Assembly: GCA_045627785.1 (NCBI GenBank)
Contig: JAZQOF010000004.1
Span: 117,948-181,947, forward strand
DNA: 64,000 bases
Reading direction: 5' to 3'
Origin: Bacteroidales bacterium
GTDB taxonomy: Bacteria > Bacteroidota > Bacteroidia > Bacteroidales > UBA3663
The position numbers and the translations under genes were made by a program. The notes below the pieces were generated by a model that saw only the letters and a list, made by a program, of their open reading frames with translations, made no database searches and had not been told where the DNA came from. Below, one piece after another: positions 43,167 through 62,276 of the stretch (positions within the stretch are counted from its first letter, which is position 1; the number at the start of each line of letters is the position of its first letter).

Positions 43167-43291
43167 AAATCATAATTGATAATTCATAATTATGCTGACG
43201 CCAATCAATTTTTAACTTTTAACTTTTAATTTTTCATTTAAATTTCTGCCTTATAATTTTTTATTTTTTAATTATTTACTTTGTATTACCT

Positions 43292-43334
43292 TGCAAAACG
43301 TCCAGAAAAAAGGGTGAAAAATTTGCAAAACGTC
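43292..43334 (+). promoter_or_regulatory. Tandem TGCAAAACGTC elements (32 bp apart), candidate upstream activator site
   Basis: Exact 11-mers start at 43292 and 43324. The proximal copy starts 72 bp upstream of the -7 box at 43396. Confidence 0.5.
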
Positions 43335-43395
43335 CAAAATTTGATACTGAGCGTAAAAAGTTCATTTTTTAATGTTCTATTTCATTTGTTATCAT

Positions 43396-43403
43396 TATAT
43401 TTG
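43396..43403 (+). promoter_or_regulatory. -7 box (TATATTTG) for the 43433 gene
   Basis: It matches TAnnTTTG and ends 30 nt upstream of the ATG. Confidence 0.5.
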
Positions 43404-43432
43404 CAAAGTTTTAAAAGAATAACAATACTTAT

Positions 43433-44497
43433 ATGAAAAAACTCATTTTATTAATTATTTGCCTGATGACTTCGGTCATGGCCAATGCACAGTATAAGGT
43501 AAGTTCTGTTGACAAGCAGGATTCACCTAATATCACACTTCACCAGGTGCTCGAAACAGAGAATAGCGTGCTGGTGTATTGTACATTAACAAGTGTTGAA
43601 GATAAATTTCATAGTTTAAGCATTAACCGTACCACAAAGGCTGAGAAGAATAACGCTGGCTACAAGCTTCTTAATTCAATCAACCTTCCAATAAAGGATG
43701 AGGCAGAGCCAAGATATTTGCTTACACGCAAACTTGGCGAGAAAGTGAACTTTGTGCTTGAATTTGGGAAGTTTGATCTTAACGGTACTTTCGATATCGT
43801 GGAGGATGATACAAAGCATGAACCTGGAATGTTGAATTTCTATGGCATTCATCTTGAGCCAATCGACATAAAGGATGCAATTGACACAGAACGATTCCTC
43901 GACTGTAGTCATGTTATCTATGGATATTATAAGGTCAATGGACACACACATGCATACTACATCAAGGATAATCTCATGTTTATGTTTCGCAATAGCTGGT
44001 ATGGCAAAGACTTCCTCATCCACCTCGAGATCACAAACAATTCCGATCATGGTGTGATGTTAGACCTTTCAAAGATTCGTACTGAGGGTACAGATGCAAA
44101 CGGAAAACCAGTCGAAGTTTTACGCTATACTCCAGACACCTACGATGCACGTATTGAAAGTGACCGCTATGCTACAGCCCGTGCAAATACTACCGACGAT
44201 GTTTCAAGAGCCACAGAGAGCCTTATTTTCCACGAACGTATCACTACAAAGAACGAATGGGGTAAGCTCGGCTTCCTGGCCCTCGAACAGGCTTACAAGC
44301 AGTCTCAGGAGAATCGTATTCAGGAGTACCTTAAGGAGCATCCTAACACTGAACCTAAGGCTATTCGATCTAACGGTATCAAGGCAGGGGAGAGCATCAT
44401 CGGCTTCATTCCTTTCAAGGTAAAGAATAAATGTAAGAATGTCAAGATCTACATCCCTATGGATGACTATGAGTTCCTGATCAACTACAATATATAA
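43433..44497 (+). CDS. Hypothetical secreted protein
   Basis: 354 aa with a signal peptide (LMTSVMANAQ). I recognise no family motif. Confidence 0.5.
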   Translation: MKKLILLIICLMTSVMANAQYKVSSVDKQDSPNITLHQVLETENSVLVYCTLTSVEDKFHSLSINRTTKAEKNNAGYKLLNSINLPIKDEAEPRYLLTRKLGEKVNFVLEFGKFDLNGTFDIVEDDTKHEPGMLNFYGIHLEPIDIKDAIDTERFLDCSHVIYGYYKVNGHTHAYYIKDNLMFMFRNSWYGKDFLIHLEITNNSDHGVMLDLSKIRTEGTDANGKPVEVLRYTPDTYDARIESDRYATARANTTDDVSRATESLIFHERITTKNEWGKLGFLALEQAYKQSQENRIQEYLKEHPNTEPKAIRSNGIKAGESIIGFIPFKVKNKCKNVKIYIPMDDYEFLINYNI

Positions 44498-44524
44498 AAA
44501 GATATTACCACTAAAAAAATCTAT

Positions 44525-46411
44525 ATGAAACACTTTAATTCGCTTCTCGTGGCTGCGCTCACAATGCTGCTTTCCGTCGGTTCGCTCACTGCCGGCAACA
44601 ACTACAAGAGCTTCAAGGTCTCGATCTATACCCGTGCCTACGAGGTAGAGAAGATGAAAGACCCGCACTGGCTTGACTCTACATGGAACATCATCTCGCA
44701 GCAGCTCACTGTCGATAAGATCTATCTTGAGACTCACCGTGACTTGCTCATCGTGCCTGACGAGACTCTCGAACAGGCTAAGCGTTTCTTCCAGCAGCGT
44801 GGCATCGAGGTGGCTGGTGGTATCACATACACCATCGACGAGTCAAACAATTTCGAGACATTCAGCTACTCTGATCCAGAGCATCGCAAGAAGGTGCAGG
44901 AGATAGCCGAACATACAGCAAAGCACTTCGACGAGTTCATCCTCGACGATTTCTTTTTCACAAGCGCAAAGACCGACGTGGAGATTGCTACTAAGGGCGA
45001 TCGTTCGTGGACTGACTACCGTCTCGAACTGATGACCGAAGCTGGTCGTAACCTTGTGATCAACCCTGCCAAGAAGGTCAATCCGAATGTCAAGGTGATC
45101 ATCAAATACCCTAATTGGTACGATCATTTCCAGGGTCTTGGCTTCAACCTTGAGAAGGGTCCGTTCCTCTTCGACGGTATCTGGACAGGAACAGAGACAC
45201 GTGATCCAGGCAGCGCACAGCACCTTCAGAATTATCTCAGCTATAATATCATCCGTTACTTCGAGAACCTCAATCCTGGTCACAACGGTGGCGGTTGGGT
45301 TGACAGCGGTGGCATCAACATGAGCATGGACCGTTATGCCGAACAGCTTCATCTCACTATGTTGGCAAAGGCTCGTGAGATAGCTCTCTTTGCCTATAAC
45401 CAGCTGCTCGACGTGAAGCTTCAGGACTCGTATCGCGGTGCATGGCAGAATCAGCAGACAAGCTGGAACTACGATGCTATGCGTGCTCCTTTCCGTGGCA
45501 AGGACGGCAAGAAGGTGACACCTACCACTATGGCCCGTATCGTCGATGTGGTGCTTCATCAGACCGACGAACTCACTCAGAAGCTCGGCAATCCTGTAGG
45601 TATCAAGTCATACAAGCGTTACCACTCGCGTGGCGAGGCATTCCTTCAGAACTACCTCGGTATGATCGGCTTGCCTATGGACGAACATCCTGTGATGGCA
45701 GAGGATCAGAAGGCTCTCTTGCTCACAGCACAGGCAGCAGGCGATCCGGAACTCATCACAAAGATCCGTCGTCAGCTTCAGGACGGTCGTGACGTCATCA
45801 TCACTACAGGTCTTCTCAAGCTCGAACAGGAGCGTCTTGCCGACATCGTGGAGCTTCAGTGCGGCTATCTCAAGGCACTTGTCAACGACTTCGGTCGTCA
45901 TGGACAGAGCTCACGCGACATCCTCATCCCTCAGGTGCTCTATTACACAAACGACTCATGGGAGGTAGTCAGCGCAGGTCGTCCTCTCTCTGGCGGTGTA
46001 TCCGGATATACGATCCTCCATCGTGCCATCTACTCTAAGGGTAACCTCTATGTGCTCACCATCCCTGATGACTTCGGTCAGCTCTACGATTACCCACAGG
46101 GTGCACTCAAGGAGATCCGTCGTACATTGAGCAAGGACCTCGATGCATATCTCGATGCTCCATCCAAGGTAAGTCTCTTCCTCTATGACAACAAGACTCT
46201 CGTGGTCGAGAACTTCAACGACGAACCGGTCGAGATCAGCATCATGATGAATGAGAAACAGATGCAGATCAAGGATCTCCTCACAGGTGAGACTATCAAT
46301 GCCATCGTGCCAAAGGTTCCTCAGGACCGCTGGGCTCGCCGATATTTCTCATCCGACAATGCATTCAAGCTCACGCTCAAGCCTCATTCTTACCGTGCTT
46401 TCAGCTATTGA
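44525..46411 (+). CDS. Hypothetical secreted protein (N-terminal region possibly TIM-barrel glycosidase-like)
   Basis: 628 aa with a signal peptide (SVGSLTAG). Codon usage is coherent. The glycosidase-like idea rests only on an alternating beta/alpha pattern and a DEFILDDFFF motif, so it is weak. Confidence 0.5.
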   Translation: MKHFNSLLVAALTMLLSVGSLTAGNNYKSFKVSIYTRAYEVEKMKDPHWLDSTWNIISQQLTVDKIYLETHRDLLIVPDETLEQAKRFFQQRGIEVAGGITYTIDESNNFETFSYSDPEHRKKVQEIAEHTAKHFDEFILDDFFFTSAKTDVEIATKGDRSWTDYRLELMTEAGRNLVINPAKKVNPNVKVIIKYPNWYDHFQGLGFNLEKGPFLFDGIWTGTETRDPGSAQHLQNYLSYNIIRYFENLNPGHNGGGWVDSGGINMSMDRYAEQLHLTMLAKAREIALFAYNQLLDVKLQDSYRGAWQNQQTSWNYDAMRAPFRGKDGKKVTPTTMARIVDVVLHQTDELTQKLGNPVGIKSYKRYHSRGEAFLQNYLGMIGLPMDEHPVMAEDQKALLLTAQAAGDPELITKIRRQLQDGRDVIITTGLLKLEQERLADIVELQCGYLKALVNDFGRHGQSSRDILIPQVLYYTNDSWEVVSAGRPLSGGVSGYTILHRAIYSKGNLYVLTIPDDFGQLYDYPQGALKEIRRTLSKDLDAYLDAPSKVSLFLYDNKTLVVENFNDEPVEISIMMNEKQMQIKDLLTGETINAIVPKVPQDRWARRYFSSDNAFKLTLKPHSYRAFSY

Positions 46412-46498
46412 TTACATTTTTTTATAAAAAAATTAAATTTATATATAGGAAAAAAGGCGTCCTTTTGGTTCCTTTTTTTATTTTACGAATGAAAAATA

Positions 46499-46541
46499 TG
46501 CAAAACGTCCAGAAAAAGAGGTCAAAAATATGCAAAACGTC
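46499..46541 (+). promoter_or_regulatory. Tandem TGCAAAACGTC elements (32 bp apart)
   Basis: Exact 11-mers start at 46499 and 46531. The proximal copy starts 72 bp upstream of the -7 box at 46603. Confidence 0.5.
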
Positions 46542-46602
46542 TTGAATTTATGATTTCGCGAAAAAAAGTGCAAAATTTATGATGTAATAATAATTTATTC
46601 CT

Positions 46603-46610
46603 TAACTTTG
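46603..46610 (+). promoter_or_regulatory. -7 box (TAACTTTG) for cassette 1
   Basis: It matches TAnnTTTG and ends 42 nt before the ATG at 46652. Confidence 0.5.
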
Positions 46611-46651
46611 TGCATATTTTAATATACATCAATTTTTAATTTTTTACTAAA

Positions 46652-47185
46652 ATGAAGAAATTCTTTTCTATTTTCAGTGTTATGGCATTAGTGGTTGCGG
46701 CTATGTCATTCGTATCTTGCAGCAAGGACAGTGATCCTGTTGTTGAAGAACCAACAAAGCCAGTAGATAATAGTAAGTCTGCGTATTACTCTTTGACTGT
46801 AAATGAATCATATTTTGAGTATGGAGATGTTATTCTTACCCTAAATAAAGACGGCGAGGAAAAAGATTATTCTTTCCTCGAAAAAGCAGAGAAGTTGAGT
46901 GATTCTGACTTAAGTGATTGGTTTGGAGGTGTAAAGACTCCAGCACGTGTAGGTGAAGGTAAAATTTTTTACGAGAAATCAGCAAAATTTACTGTAAATT
47001 TTGTCTTGTCAGACGAAGGTAAGAAGAAAATCGAAGCTGCTCCTGATGAACCTTTTGGATTAGGAACTATAGTTGCATTTGATGGTCGAACCACTGGCGG
47101 CATGCAAGAAATGCTTCTTAAGGAACTCGAAGGGTGCTTAGGTAACATAAATAAAGAAGGTGTTTACAATCGCACAGCAAATTAA
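46652..47185 (+). CDS. Small lipoprotein, paralog 1 of 3 (unknown family, cassette partner of C10 protease)
   Basis: 177 aa with a lipobox (MSFVSC followed by SKDSD). It is paralogous to the genes at 49887 and 60359. The three share the signal peptide and an FVL(S/T)DEGKK..EA motif. Confidence 0.75.
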   Translation: MKKFFSIFSVMALVVAAMSFVSCSKDSDPVVEEPTKPVDNSKSAYYSLTVNESYFEYGDVILTLNKDGEEKDYSFLEKAEKLSDSDLSDWFGGVKTPARVGEGKIFYEKSAKFTVNFVLSDEGKKKIEAAPDEPFGLGTIVAFDGRTTGGMQEMLLKELEGCLGNINKEGVYNRTAN

Positions 47186-47209
47186 ATAAATAACAAAAAG
47201 TATTAGTTC

Positions 47210-47248
47210 ATGAGGGCGGGGGACAGTGATGTTCCTCGTCTTTTGTAA
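47210..47248 (+). pseudogene. Remnant of the 5' end of the 5'-nucleotidase lipoprotein gene (deletion scar)
   Basis: GTTCATGAGGGCGGGGGA aligns with GTTCATGAAGGCGGGGAG at the start of the 50447 gene. Here the frame stops after 12 codons. Confidence 0.45.
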
Positions 47249-47252
47249 TGTA

Positions 47253-55678: not shown

Positions 55679-57061
55679 TCAGCCTACAAGAAAGCCCATC
55701 GCCACAAAACCTATGGTGGCAATGGCGGCACCAATCAGCGCATACGGCAACTGAGTCATGGCGTGATCGATATTATCAACGTCACAGGTTGAACTTGAGA
55801 GTACCGTCGCATCGGCATAGAAACAAGCATGACTGCCAAATACACCACCAGACACCACAGCTCCTAGGACGAGCAGGACGTTGGCCCCCACGGCAATGGC
55901 AAGCGGCACGACGATAGAGATGGCTATTATTTCAATGCCCCAGAAAGAACTGGTCACGAATGTCAATGCAGCAATGACGATGAAGGTAATCGCAGCAATC
56001 AGATGCGCATCCATCAGCGGCTCCACCAGCGAGATGACGTACTCTGGCATCATCATATCGCTCGACACACGCTTGGTCATAAAGCAGGCCAACAGGATAC
56101 CCAGCACTGGCAGCATATCTTTGTACCCATCCCAGAAAAGTTCGACAAATCGGGTGAATGACATCTTCTTACGTGGCAGATAGAGCAACATACAGCTTGC
56201 CAATGTGCTGACGATGGCTATAAACATATCGGAGGTATAGACAGTGACGCTGATCAATACCGCCATCGGAGCCAGAAAGTCAAAGATATTTCCATCTTCC
56301 TTCTTGGCATTGAGTTCCGAATATGCACAGACATCCGACTTCTGCGCCTCCTCAATGATCTGACGCGCCTTCACCTTACTCTCAGCCATGCGCTCGTAAG
56401 CCTTCTTCATCGGCCCGATCTTCGGTAGCCAACCCATCGCAAAGAGGAACACCACGATCAATGCAGCAAACGGATAGAACATAAACGGTACGGCCTGATA
56501 ATACACATCCAAGCCCGACGTAAAGCCTACATCCATGAGTGAAGGATCCTGACCGAACATACCCGAGTAGAACACCACCCAGGTCGAGAGTGGCAGGATG
56601 GCACAGACAGGCGCACCCGTCGAGTCGATGATGTATGCCAGTGCCTCACGTGGCAGTCGCTTCTTGTCGAAGAGCCCCTTCATGCAAGTACCCACGGTCA
56701 TGACATTCAGATAGTCATCCACAAAGATCACAATACCCATCAGCAACGACATCAGCATGATCGAGCGTTCACTCCGGCAGTAACGGCTGATGAAGTTGGA
56801 GAATCCCAACGTGCCCCTTACTTCTCGCAGCAGGAAGATCAGGCCTCCGAACATGCCGCAGAGCAGCAGGATATATAAGTTGTCGCGATTGCTGCACTCT
56901 TCAATCAGCATCTCACACCACGGCACCAGGAACCCTGCACCATGCATGAGAATATATCCTACCAATGTACCTAAGATCAGCGCCTCAAACGACTTCTTGG
57001 TCTTCAACGCAAACACAAGCATCACCAGCGGCGGCACCAACGATATTATACCGTACTCCAT
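55679..57061 (-). CDS. nhaC: NhaC family Na+/H+ (or substrate/cation) antiporter
   Basis: 460 aa with about 11-12 TM helices. The N-terminus MEYGIISLVPPLVMLVFALKTKKSFEALILG is typical of the NhaC family. Confidence 0.8.
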   Translation of the reverse strand: MEYGIISLVPPLVMLVFALKTKKSFEALILGTLVGYILMHGAGFLVPWCEMLIEECSNRDNLYILLLCGMFGGLIFLLREVRGTLGFSNFISRYCRSERSIMLMSLLMGIVIFVDDYLNVMTVGTCMKGLFDKKRLPREALAYIIDSTGAPVCAILPLSTWVVFYSGMFGQDPSLMDVGFTSGLDVYYQAVPFMFYPFAALIVVFLFAMGWLPKIGPMKKAYERMAESKVKARQIIEEAQKSDVCAYSELNAKKEDGNIFDFLAPMAVLISVTVYTSDMFIAIVSTLASCMLLYLPRKKMSFTRFVELFWDGYKDMLPVLGILLACFMTKRVSSDMMMPEYVISLVEPLMDAHLIAAITFIVIAALTFVTSSFWGIEIIAISIVVPLAIAVGANVLLVLGAVVSGGVFGSHACFYADATVLSSSTCDVDNIDHAMTQLPYALIGAAIATIGFVAMGFLVG

Positions 57062-57121
57062 TATTTCATTGTTAGTTATTTAGTCCATTGGACGGATATG
57101 AATTTATAGAAATTTTCAATG

Positions 57122-57129
57122 CAAATATA
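57122..57129 (-). promoter_or_regulatory. -7 box (TATATTTG) for nhaC
   Basis: The minus-strand sequence matches TAnnTTTG and lies about 61 nt upstream of the nhaC ATG. Confidence 0.45.
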
Positions 57130-57152
57130 CTCATTTTTCATAAAAATATACT

Positions 57153-57163
57153 TGCAAAACGTC
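57153..57163 (+). promoter_or_regulatory. Single TGCAAAACGTC element in the nhaC / PSD-like divergent promoter region
   Basis: An exact 11-mer starts 71 bp upstream of the -7 box at 57224. An inverted partial copy (GTTTTGCA) lies at about 57194. Confidence 0.45.
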
Positions 57164-57223
57164 TAAAAATTAGGTGTTAAATAAAAAAACTATGTTTTGC
57201 AGGTGTTTTCCCATGTAAAATTA

Positions 57224-57231
57224 TTAACTTT
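57224..57231 (+). promoter_or_regulatory. -7 box (TAACTTTG) for the PSD-like operon
   Basis: It matches TAnnTTTG and ends 33 nt before the ATG at 57264. Confidence 0.5.
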
Positions 57232-57263
57232 GGGCGCATTTTTAAGTTATAATATTATAAAAT

Positions 57264-58532
57264 ATGAAATTGAAAACATTCTGGGCAAGCGCCCTTGCCC
57301 TCTGTATTGTCTTTTTTTCTTCGTGCGAAAAGGATAGCAATATCGAGCCTGAAAAGCAATACTCAGCGTTTACCGAATCTTTTATCTCGATGGTCAATAA
57401 CAATAGTGAGCTGAAGAGTCTGCTGACCGAGAGCATCGAACTGTGTCGCAAGCAAAACCCTGACAAGGAGAGCAATCCGGTGCAGAGTCTCAGCGACTAC
57501 TACGACCTGGTGGAGTGGAGTATAAAGTGCATGCCTTGGGAGATCTTCCCACAGCCAGCCGGACGTGATCTCTTTAACCGTATCGACCAGAGTCTTAATT
57601 ATTTTTACTGGCTCGTCGATCAGGATCTCGATGCACTAAAGGATAAGGATTACTACCATCCATCTCTTCAGTATCATGAGCCATTCCGCACCTGGCTGGT
57701 TGACTATACCAAGGAGTGGGGTCGCTACCTCTCTACTCCTGACAGCTGGAATGCAGATTATCTCAAGATAGTCAAAGATAACGAGAAATTCGGTCTCGGC
57801 CAAGGTTGGTACGAAGATCCAAGCCAGTGGAACAGCTTCAACGATTTCTTTGCCCGCCGTCTCTCTTCGCCTTCGGTACGTCCGATATCCGATCCTTCTG
57901 ACCCTTCGGTAGTAGCAAGCCCTGCTGACAGTGAGCCTCAGGGCATCTGGGCCATCGATAGTGAAGGCCTGATGGTGCAGAAGGAGGGTGTTGTTATCAA
58001 GTCACGCCGTTACCGTTCGACCGAAGAACTGATGGCCAACAGCCAATATCGCTCAGACTTCAAGAATGGTACAATGACACATACGTTCCTCAACGTTCAC
58101 GACTACCATCGCTACCATTTCCCGATGAGTGGCAAGATCCTCGAGATCATAGATATACCTGGCGATGAAGCCATCGGTGGCGATGTAGTGTATGATGATG
58201 CTACCAAGACCTATATCATAGAGTGTGAAGTACCTCAGTGGCAGGCTATCGAGACACGACAGCTCGTAGTGCTGGAAACAGAGTTTGGCAAGGTGGCAGT
58301 CATGCCTATCGGTATGTCTCAGATCTGCTCTTGCAACTGGACTCCAGGCCTGAAGGTCGGTGACGAGGTGAAGAAGGGTGATCAGATGGGATATTTCCTC
58401 TTTGGCGGCTCAGACATCGTGCTTCTGTTCCAGTCAGATGTCGAAGTGACCATGGCCTGCCCAGAGAATAAGAATGGCGGATTTGAACATGTGCTGATGG
58501 GAGAGAAGCTCTGTGTACTGAAGCATAAGTAA
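57264..58532 (+). CDS. Exported (lipoprotein) phosphatidylserine-decarboxylase-family / PsiD-like pyruvoyl-dependent decarboxylase
   Basis: 422 aa with a lipobox (VFFSSC followed by EKD). The C-terminal PSD fold has FFARRL..RPI and the self-cleavage-type motif GYFLFGGSDIVLLF. A roughly 180 aa N-terminal extra domain resembles the long PSD/PsiD-like forms. Confidence 0.7.
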   Translation: MKLKTFWASALALCIVFFSSCEKDSNIEPEKQYSAFTESFISMVNNNSELKSLLTESIELCRKQNPDKESNPVQSLSDYYDLVEWSIKCMPWEIFPQPAGRDLFNRIDQSLNYFYWLVDQDLDALKDKDYYHPSLQYHEPFRTWLVDYTKEWGRYLSTPDSWNADYLKIVKDNEKFGLGQGWYEDPSQWNSFNDFFARRLSSPSVRPISDPSDPSVVASPADSEPQGIWAIDSEGLMVQKEGVVIKSRRYRSTEELMANSQYRSDFKNGTMTHTFLNVHDYHRYHFPMSGKILEIIDIPGDEAIGGDVVYDDATKTYIIECEVPQWQAIETRQLVVLETEFGKVAVMPIGMSQICSCNWTPGLKVGDEVKKGDQMGYFLFGGSDIVLLFQSDVEVTMACPENKNGGFEHVLMGEKLCVLKHK

Positions 58533-58624
58533 TATCTTATTCTCCACCTGGGCGGCATGCAGGGGCATTACACATTTTACTGAAAGCTATAAGTTTTACA
58601 GTAAGAAATAAAATTCTTAAATTC

Positions 58625-60265
58625 GTGAAAAGAATAATAACCCTTATCTCGTTAGCGTTAGCAATGACAATGCAGGTCATCGCTCAGGACTGGCGTGATG
58701 AGCTCCTTTCAAGTAATGCAGGTGTCATCGACTCGATTACATCGGTGCAGGATACCTCGTATGTGTCGGATAACTTCAGATCATATATGATCTATTACAA
58801 GCAGCCGCTGAATCATGATGTTCCGGAAGAAGGGACCATTTCTCTTCGAGCACTTTTTATCACAAACCTCATGGGCGGCAATTTCGTCGACAATATGATA
58901 CAGATGTCAATAGGAGGATATGAGTTAGATAAAAGTATCGTAAAATCTCCTGATTCCTGGGCAGAGTATAGTGGCTTTACAAAGTCTATGGGTGAGCTTA
59001 TCGGAAACTTCGGACATCTTCTCATGCCAGAACATCGTTTCTACGGAGAGTCTTGTCCCAAAGACTTTGCTCAATACCTGAGTCACTGCAATGCCAAGGA
59101 GGCAGCAGCTGACTTTCATGCACTGGCTGAGGCAATGAAGAAAGTCTTCCATGGAAAATGGTTGATGTCGGGTGTCAGCAAAGGTGGTATGGCTACTGCT
59201 ATTCAGCATGCATATTACCCTGATGATGCAGACTGCTACGTTTGCTATGTCGCACCTTTCATTGACGGTACCAACGACTTGCGTCCACAGGAATACTGGC
59301 TCACAAAGAGCTGGACTCCAGAACTGCGTGATCATGCATTACACATACAGAAAGAGATACTTAATCGTCCGACAGTCAAGGAGTATGTCATAAATAATGT
59401 TCTTTTTCATCTCGATCCGGATGAAATACGTGATCAATGTGAATTCCTGCAAAATACCGTTTGTCTGCTGGATGCCTATTCTCATCAATATACTGATCGC
59501 GACTCAATTGAGGATATCTTCAGCAGCAATAAGAAGATACTTGAGGAACGTGGTCTCTCTGACTATTCAGACGAGATGCTTGAATACATGGTCAATAATC
59601 ACAGCTATGCCCTTGACAGCGGTTTTGTAAAATTTGAAAAATTTGAAAATCTGAATGATGAGGACGAAAATGAATCTACAACACGTAGTGATAGTGCGCC
59701 TAGTGATTTTAAACAAGACGATGTCTTTTCCTATCAGTGTGTGACTGAACTCGGATATTTCGGCATTAATTGGGATTACTACTATAACACAAAGGCTGAG
59801 GCTGATTCTGTAGCCGACATGTGGAATAGCTATCTCCCGAACAGCCTTTGCCTGAATTCAAGTGAATACTTGCGTACACTTGAGTATGATCCTTCGGTAA
59901 TGAACTTTGTAAAGCAGAAGATTACCGAAACAAAGAAGCCAATTCTCTTTCTCTATGGTGAGGATGATCCTTGGACAGGAGCTGCCATTGACGATGAGTA
60001 TGTCAACGGTGACAATGTCCGCAAGTTTATCCTTCCAGCACAATGCCACACTGCAAGTCTGTTTAAGATATTGCCAAGTGACAGTGCGTTGTCTGATGAA
60101 ATACACAGCTTTATCGACAAAGCATTATCCACTCAAGCCTCAGCTATCAGCAGCATCAGTGCAGATGAAACCAACTCTGACATATATGACCTCAATGGTC
60201 GTCGTATGAATGGTGTGCCTGAGCGTGGCATCTTCGTGCAAAAGGGCAAGAAAGTGATTAAGTAA
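58625..60265 (+). CDS. S28/S37-like alpha/beta-hydrolase serine peptidase with T9SS sorting domain
   Basis: 546 aa with a GTG start, which is needed for the signal peptide MKRIITLISLALAMTMQVIAQ. It has PEHRFYGES (S28-like) and the nucleophile elbow GVSKGGMA (S37-like). The Por tail is DIYDLNGRRMNGVPERGIFVQKGKKVI. Confidence 0.65.
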   Translation: MKRIITLISLALAMTMQVIAQDWRDELLSSNAGVIDSITSVQDTSYVSDNFRSYMIYYKQPLNHDVPEEGTISLRALFITNLMGGNFVDNMIQMSIGGYELDKSIVKSPDSWAEYSGFTKSMGELIGNFGHLLMPEHRFYGESCPKDFAQYLSHCNAKEAAADFHALAEAMKKVFHGKWLMSGVSKGGMATAIQHAYYPDDADCYVCYVAPFIDGTNDLRPQEYWLTKSWTPELRDHALHIQKEILNRPTVKEYVINNVLFHLDPDEIRDQCEFLQNTVCLLDAYSHQYTDRDSIEDIFSSNKKILEERGLSDYSDEMLEYMVNNHSYALDSGFVKFEKFENLNDEDENESTTRSDSAPSDFKQDDVFSYQCVTELGYFGINWDYYYNTKAEADSVADMWNSYLPNSLCLNSSEYLRTLEYDPSVMNFVKQKITETKKPILFLYGEDDPWTGAAIDDEYVNGDNVRKFILPAQCHTASLFKILPSDSALSDEIHSFIDKALSTQASAISSISADETNSDIYDLNGRRMNGVPERGIFVQKGKKVIK

Positions 60266-60307
60266 CAGCCTTTGTGAAATTATATGATATAATAATTAAT
60301 TATTAAT

Positions 60308-60315
60308 TAACTTTG
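60308..60315 (+). promoter_or_regulatory. -7 box (TAACTTTG) for small lipoprotein paralog 3
   Basis: It matches TAnnTTTG. The surrounding roughly 90 bp is nearly identical to the promoter of paralog 2. Confidence 0.45.
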
Positions 60316-60358
60316 CATTGATATAATAATATAAAAATTAATTTTCAATCTTACAAAA

Positions 60359-60889
60359 ATGAAGAAATTCTTTTCAATTTTCAGTGTTATGGCAGTAGTT
60401 ATTGCTGCTATGTCGTTTGTATCTTGCAGCAAGGACAGTGATGATCCTATTGTTGATGAACCAAAGCCAGAGATTTTTAAGGGTGTTAACTATTTTCTAA
60501 TAGTTAATGAAGATTTTTTCAAATATGGTGATGTAGAAGTAACAGTTACCACTGACGGTATGGAAGAAGTTTATTCTTTCCTTCAAGTTGCTAAAAAGGA
60601 AACTCTTGATATATGGTATGCTGAAAAGACTGAAAAAAATGCCCCAATTCGTAAAATTGATGCAAATTTTCCATACAAGAAAAATATCAAGATTTCTGCT
60701 AAGTTTATTTTAACAGATGAAGGCAAGAAGCTTGTTGAAGCAGCTTCTGATGAAGAAGACTTTGATTTCTTTGCTGAAGATTCTTTTGATGGAGCAAGTA
60801 ATTATCTTTCAAATACAAGTGCTTATGTTAAAACTCTTGAAGGGTATTTATCTATTATGAATGAATATGCTACTCATTCAGCTAATTAA
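60359..60889 (+). CDS. Small lipoprotein, paralog 3 of 3 (orphan: no protease downstream)
   Basis: 176 aa with a lipobox (MSFVSC followed by SKDSDD). The promoter and signal-peptide DNA are almost identical to the 49887 copy. Confidence 0.75.
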   Translation: MKKFFSIFSVMAVVIAAMSFVSCSKDSDDPIVDEPKPEIFKGVNYFLIVNEDFFKYGDVEVTVTTDGMEEVYSFLQVAKKETLDIWYAEKTEKNAPIRKIDANFPYKKNIKISAKFILTDEGKKLVEAASDEEDFDFFAEDSFDGASNYLSNTSAYVKTLEGYLSIMNEYATHSAN

Positions 60890-60892
60890 ATA

Positions 60893-60925
60893 TAAAAAAC
60901 AACTTGTTCATGATGGCGAGGATAA
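60893..60925 (+). pseudogene. Second deletion scar: start of the nucleotidase gene fused to the terminator repeat
   Basis: AACTTGTTCATGATGGCGAGGA aligns with the 50436-50458 region. It is joined directly to ATAACAAATACAGCC, which in cassette 2 lies downstream of the C10 stop (54613). Confidence 0.45.
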
Positions 60926-60960
60926 CAAATACAGCCGAGAGAAAATCTTCTTTCGGCTGT
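60921..60960. repeat. Hairpin-containing intergenic repeat, copy C
   Basis: The sequence is GATAACAAATACAGCCGAGAG AAAATCT TCTTTCGGCTGT. The right flank ATCACTTTTAAATGTTGCAGCT is shared with copy B. Confidence 0.75.
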
Positions 60961-60980
60961 ATTCTTTTAATCAATCACTT

Positions 60981-62150: not shown

Positions 62151-62276
62151 GTTTCCGAGTTCTCAAAAGTCCGATTTCCATTCGGAGATTTCATTTCCGA
62201 GTTCTCGGAAGTCCGATCTCCGTTTGGAGATTTCATTTTTGACTTCTCGGAAGTCCATTCTCCAAATAGGAATAGT
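62151..62276. repeat. 42-bp tandem repeat, about 3 units, each with an internal hairpin/palindrome
   Basis: The unit is TTTCCGAGTTCTCGGAAGTCCGATCTCCGTTTGGAGATTTCA. Units 1 and 2 are near-identical. Unit 3 is diverged and encodes the amidase C-terminus. Coordinates are accurate to within 1 nt. Confidence 0.8.

Follow-up and report, generated by a model that had tools for sequence, protein, structure and literature searches.

A 64,000-nucleotide stretch of the genome of a Bacteroidales bacterium (assembly GCA_045627785.1, contig JAZQOF010000004.1, positions 117,948 to 181,947; the whole stretch is called the window here) encodes a 422-residue protein that is related both to phosphatidylserine decarboxylases (PSD, or Psd) and to the fungal tryptophan decarboxylase PsiD, and that begins with a lipoprotein signal. 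The gene for this PSD-like protein is flanked by a divergent NhaC-family transporter gene and by a gene for a secreted serine peptidase. This arrangement raises the question of what an exported enzyme of this kind would act on, and whether its neighbors take part in the reaction. The original prediction, made from the letters of the sequence alone, had joined the three genes in an amine-producing module. We argue that the PSD-like gene stands alone, and that the peptidase and the transporter came to lie beside it recently and take no part in its function. The reading that we favor, with a probability of roughly 0.55, is that the PSD-like protein works outside the cytoplasm, independently of its neighbors, as a pyruvoyl decarboxylase of a soluble amino acid. 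The argument rests on the following features of the gene:

57264..58532, plus strand: PSD/PsiD-like pyruvoyl decarboxylase proenzyme, 422 residues (PF02666, E = 1e-39; below all Psd equivalog cut-offs; AlphaFold2 model confidence 90.1)
57264..57326, plus strand: lipoprotein signal peptide, residues 1-21, lipobox FSS-C21, read from the sequence
57351..57833, plus strand: N-terminal helical domain, residues ~30-190, from DSSP helices on the AlphaFold2 model
58410..58412, plus strand: codon of Ser383, the pyruvoyl precursor, at the predicted self-cleavage site Gly382/Ser383 (matched in alignment by FHFGG, where the PsiD beta chain ends, and by GGS of Ao-ADC1)

A family with export signals within PF02666

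The relation of the protein to PSD and PsiD, as originally proposed, is borne out by a match to PF02666 of 136.7 bits (cut-off 22; E = 1e-39), which spans residues 192-416 and profile positions 1-196 of 198. All of the NCBIfam equivalog models for Psd are missed, with scores of 100.4 against a cut-off of 371 for NF001941, 74.5 against 111.75 for TIGR00163, 70.9 against 307 for NF002853, and 30.8 against 183 for NF003685. The protein is a member of PF02666, yet it is not a canonical Psd.

It is also not alone. More than 3271 homologs were found among 5.8 billion proteins, the top 120 being 413-461 residues long and 49-99% identical to the protein, and 304 clusters are reached at E ≤ 1e-30 among cluster representatives at 50% identity. 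In the GTDB set, which holds one genome per species, at least 536 stretches encode a relative, and the best match is only 53% identical. The best 80 of these loci, on which the analyses of GTDB neighborhoods and signals were based, come from predominantly anaerobic groups: Bacteroidales, Chlorobiaceae, Desulfobacterota/Geobacter, Spirochaetes/Treponema, Clostridia, Negativicutes, Coriobacteriia, and Planctomycetes. Phocaeicola barnesiae DSM 18169 and Anaerovibrio lipolyticus DSM 3074 are among the carriers that can be cultivated.

The N-terminus of the PSD-like protein reads MKLKTFWASALALCIVFFSSC, followed by EKD, with a lipobox cysteine at position 21; Bacteroidota homologs carry a cysteine at the same position, consistent with the lipoprotein signal that had been claimed for it. 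Hydrophobic N-termini are present in 118 of the top 120 homologs and a lipobox-like cysteine in 55 of them, and at least 70 of 78 GTDB loci encode an N-terminal signal peptide. The type of signal differs among lineages: lipoboxes are found in Bacteroidota, Clostridia, and Coriobacteriia, and signal peptidase I (SPI) sites of the AxA type in Chlorobi, Desulfobacterota, and Negativicutes. The mature PSD-like protein has no hydrophobic stretch beyond its signal peptide. Since signal peptides occur throughout the family, export appears, as far as sequence can tell, to be a defining feature of it. The earlier description of an exported paralog is accordingly supported: the export signal and the missed Psd cut-offs point to an exported paralog within the PSD/PsiD superfamily. 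It is no one-off, as it has over 3000 relatives. The PSD-like protein is a member of a large, uncharacterized extracytoplasmic "long-form" PF02666 family found mainly in anaerobes.

These observations bear on the simplest alternative, that the gene encodes a regular housekeeping Psd, with a hydrophobic N-terminus that stays uncleaved and serves as a membrane anchor. Family members are indeed annotated as phosphatidylserine decarboxylase in the source databases, and the 64-kb window, part of a contig of 184 kb, holds no second PF02666-like sequence, a result that says nothing of the genome outside the window. Against such an inner-membrane enzyme stand the equivalog scores, every one of which is below its cut-off, and the lipobox cysteine or AxA site that follows the hydrophobic segment and is conserved in every phylum. 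Moreover, members of the cluster at 90% identity or above lie in unrelated contexts and one genome carries tandem copies, neither of which is expected of a core lipid gene. A housekeeping role is unlikely in the extreme.

Fold and predicted self-cleavage

An AlphaFold2 model built on 63 sequences has a mean predicted local distance difference test score (pLDDT) of 90.1 and a predicted template modeling score (pTM) of 0.84, in which the N-terminal half is helical and the C-terminal half rich in beta structure. The top match of this model in the PDB, as found by Foldseek, is PsiD (E = 2e-16, ~395 columns). Alignments with the PsiD and Ao-ADC1 structures 8X4Q, 8ZIA, 9JER, and 9JF5 extend over 391-430 columns (422-430 for Ao-ADC1), compared with only ~263 for E. 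coli PSD. This is consistent with the extra N-terminal domain that had been proposed by analogy with the long forms. The comparison of profiles and structures with Psd and PsiD, a check suggested together with the original prediction, gives a long-form protein resembling PsiD and Ao-ADC1 that falls below the Psd equivalogs.

The N-terminal domain misses the threshold of PF12588, the model for the PSDC or PsiD-like N-terminal domain (E = 0.084, 13.4 bits against 23.4, over 13 residues only). Invariant N-terminal residues of the family are NPD..NP, MPW, E139, and WYE182-184. Its first ~100 residues are specific to the family and are additional to what E. coli Psd possesses. Residues ~131-200, by profile alignment with E. 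coli residues 5-71, are homologous to the three N-terminal helices by which E. coli PSD associates with the membrane.

The predicted site of self-cleavage is conserved. Asp222, His285, and Ser383 align with Asp90, His147, and Ser254 of E. coli PSD, and Ser383 falls at the cleavage site Gly402/Ser403 of PsiD. Seven residues, D222, H282, H285, G381, G382, S383, and D384, are invariant in the 63 family sequences. The motif FLFGGSDIV, taken originally as the pyruvoyl-forming region, aligns with the GG/S cleavage sites of both PsiD and Ao-ADC1, in agreement with that assignment; FGGS(D/S) is present in 110 of the top 120 homologs and GMS(Q/E)(V/I) in 118. The GGS cleavage site is common to the PSD-like protein, PsiD, and Ao-ADC1, whereas E. 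coli PSD has LGST.

Based on these similarities, the following course of maturation can be proposed. The proenzyme would be exported and, in this Bacteroidales genome, anchored to lipid through Cys21, or released into the periplasm as a soluble protein in other lineages. It would cleave itself between Gly382 and Ser383 by means of the Asp222/His285/Ser383 triad, yielding a beta chain of ~361 residues and ~41 kDa (residues 22-382) and an alpha chain of 40 residues and ~4.5 kDa, the N-terminal serine of which would become the pyruvoyl cofactor. The substrate, through its free amino group, could then form a Schiff base with the cofactor and lose its alpha-carboxyl group. Most likely this substrate would be a soluble amino acid or a head group resembling one, met at the cell surface or in the periplasm, and would yield an amine.

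The best characterized match by sequence and fold is PsiD, the L-tryptophan decarboxylase of Psilocybe cubensis (8X4Q, 8ZIA; PMC11929908). The two share a helical region N-terminal to the PF02666 domain, the GGS site, an FLNV loop, a loop of the form IGM(T/S)(E/Q)I(S/C), and an equivalent tyrosine. They differ in that PsiD is a cytosolic fungal enzyme without a signal peptide that is encoded in a biosynthetic cluster, and identity over the structural alignment is only ~19%, with TM scores of 0.54-0.65. Ao-ADC1, the pyruvoyl-dependent arginine decarboxylase of Aspergillus oryzae (9JER, 9JF5), is likewise a long-form PF02666 protein with an N-terminal helix region, GGS, and a VGMSEVS loop, and it acts on a free amino acid (PMC12904898). 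It is fungal and intracellular, has a different second loop (FLSADSYHCWN), and is 17% identical. E. coli Psd (6L06, 7CNW-7CNZ) shares the Pfam family, the Asp-His-Ser triad, the motifs DYHR(V/Y)H and FN(D/E)FF, and the homologous N-terminal helices, but acts at the cytoplasmic face of the membrane and lacks a signal peptide. In architecture and motifs the PSD-like protein conforms to PsiD and Ao-ADC1; it differs fundamentally from both in that it is bacterial and exported.

A soluble amino acid or a lipid substrate

PF02666 is primarily a family of phosphatidylserine decarboxylases, and the obvious rival to an amino acid substrate is a phospholipid. The PSD-like protein might be an exported phospholipid decarboxylase that acts on phosphatidylserine, lyso-phosphatidylserine, or another serine-headed lipid. 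Its site of action would then be the outer leaflet of the inner membrane, the outer membrane or vesicles, or host membranes.

On the side of the amino acid decarboxylases, the FLNV sequence of the PSD-like protein is identical to the pocket loop of PsiD, and Tyr317 is the equivalent of PsiD Tyr338 (pocket residues and their roles in PsiD are taken from PMC11929908). The loop PIGMSQ(I/V)S corresponds to IGMTEIS in PsiD and VGMSEVS in Ao-ADC1, as opposed to VGATIVGS in E. coli PSD. Because the GM(S/T) loop is common to the tryptophan and the arginine enzymes, it permits no prediction of specificity.

On the side of the phospholipid enzymes, Tyr137 of E. coli PSD is a phosphate ligand and Leu13, Phe41, and Leu252 make acyl contacts (PMC7952604). 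By hidden Markov model (HMM) alignment, Tyr137 is replaced by an invariant phenylalanine (Phe275) in the PSD-like family, Leu13 by an invariant glutamate (Glu139), Phe41 by Lys171, and Leu252 by an invariant glycine (Gly381), so that neither the phosphate ligand nor the hydrophobic acyl groove is kept. The helix segment homologous to the membrane-association helices is polar and net acidic, with a grand average of hydropathy of -1.04, compared with -0.09 in E. coli PSD. In addition, cleavable SPI signals are common in the family and predict soluble periplasmic proteins, and the best structural matches are soluble amino acid decarboxylases, both of which argue against a lipid substrate.

Gene neighborhoods provide a further indication. 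In at least three lineages that are independent of one another (L034/L038/L065 and L049; also L031), the gene directly upstream of the family gene, and pointing the same way, encodes a secreted C69 dipeptidase whose catalytic cysteine comes immediately after the signal peptide. The preference for a soluble amino acid rests on an architecture and loops like those of PsiD and Ao-ADC1, the replacement of the residues that bind lipid, the polar helices, and this recurrent dipeptidase. At the Desulfocapsa locus (L031:9860-12546), two tandem PSD-like genes are followed by the gene for a secreted C69 peptidase.

Several observations weigh against this preference. In sequence, the protein scores against E. 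coli PSD in much the same order as against PsiD (family-profile E-values of 1.4e-21 for PsiD, 5e-17 for Ao-ADC1, and 7e-17 for E. coli PSD), and a phylogenetic affinity with the amino acid decarboxylases is unproven. The N-terminal helices do align with those of E. coli PSD, although by an HMM alignment of low identity, and the GM(S/T) loop does not separate tryptophan from arginine enzymes. The lipid anchor would place the enzyme beside a membrane. At Geobacter-type loci a Phospholipase-B-like gene lies 16 nucleotides downstream of the family gene (L009) or within 1.7 kb of it (L003, L025), which could indicate a lipid substrate. Finally, full-text literature searches found no characterized exported bacterial PF02666 enzyme. 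Taking both sides together, we consider a phospholipid substrate improbable, if the most serious competitor to a soluble amino acid.

PsiD and Ao-ADC1 are the only two members of PF02666 known to use free amino acids as substrates. Should the family reaction be the one favored here, hundreds of anaerobes from gut, rumen, and sediment might possess a large and undescribed class of extracytoplasmic PsiD-like pyruvoyl amino acid decarboxylases, producing biogenic amines outside the cell without pyridoxal phosphate (PLP); this wider proposal is tentative and, at present, rather doubtful. If it is true, such enzymes could be the missing source of amines in Bacteroidales that have no annotated aromatic amino acid decarboxylase, and gut and rumen communities would have a route to amines, independent of PLP, that has been overlooked so far. 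The PF02666 fold was not considered in a 2025 survey of gut amino acid decarboxylases, which noted unexplained amine production by Bacteroides (PMC12484125). The database label "phosphatidylserine decarboxylase" is at odds with the evidence that these exported enzymes are built like PsiD and Ao-ADC1, and the family deserves biochemical study.

The PSD-like gene stands alone

According to the original prediction, the peptidase would release residues from host peptides, the decarboxylase would convert them into an amine at the cell surface, and the antiporter would balance substrate and product, or ions, so that the three genes form one functional unit. The open reading frame (ORF) list of the 64-kb window places the genes exactly where that prediction had them. 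Besides the PSD-like gene these are:

55679..57061, minus strand: NhaC-family (PF03553, E = 2.2e-24) transporter, 460 residues, divergent from the PSD-like gene
58625..60265, plus strand: S28/S37-like serine peptidase, secreted, 546 residues, GTG start (PF05576, 63.8 bits; PF05577, 43.5 bits)
60359..60889, plus strand: lipoprotein paralog 3, 176 residues (direct repeats D2, D3, D6, and D10 shared with units at 46.6 and 49.9 kb)

The spacer between the PSD-like and peptidase genes measures 92 nucleotides, as reported, and terminator prediction finds none in it, which counts in favor of a module. In the window, and in one further contig (L087), the three genes lie side by side. The nhaC and PSD-like genes also occur as a block in three other contigs (L081, L092, L095) that match window positions 55677-58535 or 55677-58532 with 98.5-98.8% identical DNA; the adjacent flanks of these contigs do not match the window.

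Beyond these contigs the linkage disappears. By tblastn, an NhaC or S28 homolog lies within 10 kb of the family gene in none of the 80 GTDB loci; the lipoprotein and C10 proteins of the window found no match there either, and its 5'-nucleotidase matched in two loci only. All-versus-all clustering of 1029 ORFs revealed no dominant partner, the largest neighbor cluster being present in five loci, and the commonest Pfam families among 142 immediately flanking ORFs are C69 (5), M15_4 (4), and MatE (3). The same holds for closer relatives. PSD-like genes in or near the 90% cluster (L082-L084, L091) are not linked to the partners seen in the window: a relative of 86% identity has an ADP-ribosylglycohydrolase/phosphatase gene upstream, and a 90%-cluster member in another NCBI assembly sits between nitroreductase/MFS genes and DUF2200/esterase genes. 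Conversely, a 73% identical relative of the peptidase (L088) adjoins a C11 peptidase, and 88-90% identical relatives of the transporter (L089, L090) adjoin AraC/ABC-F or PspC genes; all are unlinked to the other two genes.

Even among close kin the peptidase is not a fixed neighbor. Six near-identical contigs (98-99% DNA identity, probably the same species) run past the stop codon of the PSD-like gene, and in five of the six (L081, L092-L095) the peptidase is replaced by a set of genes on the minus strand; only L087 has the peptidase and lipoprotein of the window. Where the contig is long enough (L081, L093, L094), this set consists of a gene for a ~165-residue protein, ScmC, and PqqD, in some cases with a radical-SAM gene. 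These radical-SAM/PqqD/ScmC sets (L081:3254-4934, L093:1553-4593, and L094:1561-4477, with a 42-residue ORF in L093 and L094) look like a cluster for a ribosomally synthesized and post-translationally modified peptide.

The survey of the nhaC/PSD-like/S28 neighborhood comes essentially to the result that had been named as refuting the module, the three genes not being linked elsewhere. Two further points speak against a module: the peptidase family has 67 detectable members as opposed to the more than 3000 homologs of the decarboxylase, and a decarboxylase that is itself exported would have no need of a precursor/product antiporter. We consider such a functional unit very unlikely, and the analysis corrects an operon story that is attractive but unsupported. 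The idea of a peptidase acting together with the decarboxylase survives in a weaker form, in that, in a few lineages unrelated to one another, a secreted C69 dipeptidase is encoded in one operon with the family gene. The juxtaposition with nhaC is limited to the near-identical contigs, probably one species, and that with the S28-like peptidase to some of them; both would have arisen by rearrangement in a repeat-rich, variable region.

Base composition is relevant to how the pair of nhaC and PSD-like genes came about. As had been noticed, both are GC-richer than their surroundings, at 51.0% for nhaC and 49.1% for the PSD-like gene, compared with 41.3% for the 64-kb window and 31.8% for lipoprotein paralog 3. 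The GC content at third codon positions (GC3) is 0.58 in the PSD-like gene and 0.64 in nhaC, the highest in the window, and the nearest named relatives of the transporter, at ~55-62% identity, are from Clostridia. The NhaC-family gene may have been acquired horizontally. One hypothesis is that nhaC and the PSD-like gene were transferred together as a cassette, which would fit the GC3 values, the Clostridia-like relatives of nhaC, and the identity with the sister contigs that stops at the gene ends. Against joint transfer, PSD-like relatives at ~84-86% identity occur without nhaC (L082-L084 by amino acid, L091 by DNA), and no mobility genes flank the block.

The neighboring peptidase and transporter

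The assignment of the downstream gene to the S28/S37-like serine peptidases stands, as the thresholds of both Pfam families are passed (PF05576, cut-off 27; PF05577, cut-off 25) and the nucleophile motif GVSKGG lies at residues 183-188. It shares the GxSxGG motif with S28 (PRCP/DPP7) and S37 (the PS-10 tripeptidyl aminopeptidase of Streptomyces) enzymes, but aligns with them over its N-terminal ~215 residues only. Further motifs are GEDDPW at residue 445 and QCH at 473-475, and the signal peptide ends at VIA/QD. Neither a PDB sequence match nor an NCBIfam model was found for this protein, and its family is apparently restricted to Bacteroidales.

The peptidase had also been credited with a Por tail, a sorting signal of the type IX secretion system (T9SS). 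Neither PF18962 nor TIGR04183 matches at E ≤ 5, whether the last 89 residues or the whole protein are searched, and this part of the description is not upheld; the C-termini of the C10 proteases in the window likewise give nothing with these models at E ≤ 5. The peptidase, its homologs, and both C10 proteases (47226-49691, 52125-54560) do have in common a terminal motif of ~27 residues, IYDLNGRRMNGVPERGIFVQKGKKVIK. It is too short for the canonical T9SS C-terminal domain of ~70 residues and may be a shortened sorting signal. The consensus of this motif is (I/Y)YDLNGR..G(I/F)x(V/I)xxGK(K)V.., and the peptidase and C10 proteases all have an N-terminal glutamine after signal cleavage.

The transporter, called an NhaC-family antiporter and divergently oriented as described, matches PF03553 with 86.7 bits (cut-off 23). 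It falls far below the NhaC equivalog cut-off (TIGR00931, 33.8 against 370), as well as below those for Tet(35) (88.6 against 750) and ArcD (30.9 against 650). A PDB sequence search gave no match for it.

Promoter elements and the repeat-rich region

57153..57163, plus strand: TGCAAAACGTC element, 5' of the PSD-like gene, one of six exact copies in the window
57225..57232, plus strand: TAACTTTG, fitting the Bacteroidota -7 promoter motif TAnnTTTG (conserved block TTAAnTTTG in an alignment of five upstream regions)
55399..55436, plus strand: terminator-like hairpin, copy 2 of 3, left of the nhaC/PSD-like/peptidase block (repeat and terminator analysis)
60928..60963, plus strand: terminator-like hairpin, copy 3 of 3, right of lipoprotein paralog 3 (repeat and terminator analysis)

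The shared promoter region of nhaC and the PSD-like gene does contain the TGCAAAACGTC element that had been located there. All six exact copies in the window are intergenic and on the plus strand, and when one mismatch is allowed there are nine matches, again all on the plus strand, compared with 1.48 expected by chance. The other copies are paired, ~32 nucleotides apart, 5' of genes for lipoprotein paralogs. TAACTTTG follows the element by ~60 nucleotides; TAnnTTTG is the -7 consensus of Bacteroidota promoters, as established in Bacteroides.

The region 43200-60960 is an array of repeated units, each comprising a promoter with two TGCAAAACGTC elements, a lipoprotein paralog of ~177 residues, and a secreted enzyme. 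The secreted enzymes are two Spi-inhibitor/C10 proteases, a 5'-nucleotidase, and a 628-residue protein without a Pfam match. Direct repeats confirm that lipoprotein paralog 3, for which a Pfam search assigned no family, is a paralog of the genes at 46652 and 49887. After it lies a remnant of a 5'-nucleotidase gene start (60874-60922 resembles 50411-50459), and the terminator-like hairpin occurs three times in the array (54620, 55401, 60929). The repeated units, the thrice-repeated hairpin, and the 5'-nucleotidase remnant are together the signature of a recombination-prone, variable region at 43-61 kb.

A gene for a YafQ/ParE-type toxin (54721-54993, minus strand) and one for a ribbon-helix-helix antitoxin (54990-55250, minus strand) lie between two copies of a 72-nucleotide repeat. 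The copies (54580-54651 and 55361-55432) are 85% identical and have a strong hairpin at the end. The segment 54580-55432 looks like an inserted toxin-antitoxin cassette that duplicated the terminator of a C10 protease gene.

Elsewhere in the window, positions 1-43000 show a sharp step in GC3: genes at 0-33 kb have values of 0.30-0.40, and holB, FBPase, a Mur ligase, GyrA, and a TPR gene at 34-43 kb have values of ~0.5. This step could be natural heterogeneity or the mark of a chimeric contig in a metagenome-assembled genome. At the other end, two copies, 88% identical, of a 42-nucleotide tandem repeat (62152-62235) lie in the 5' part of a DUF6261 ORF and encode a repeated peptide.

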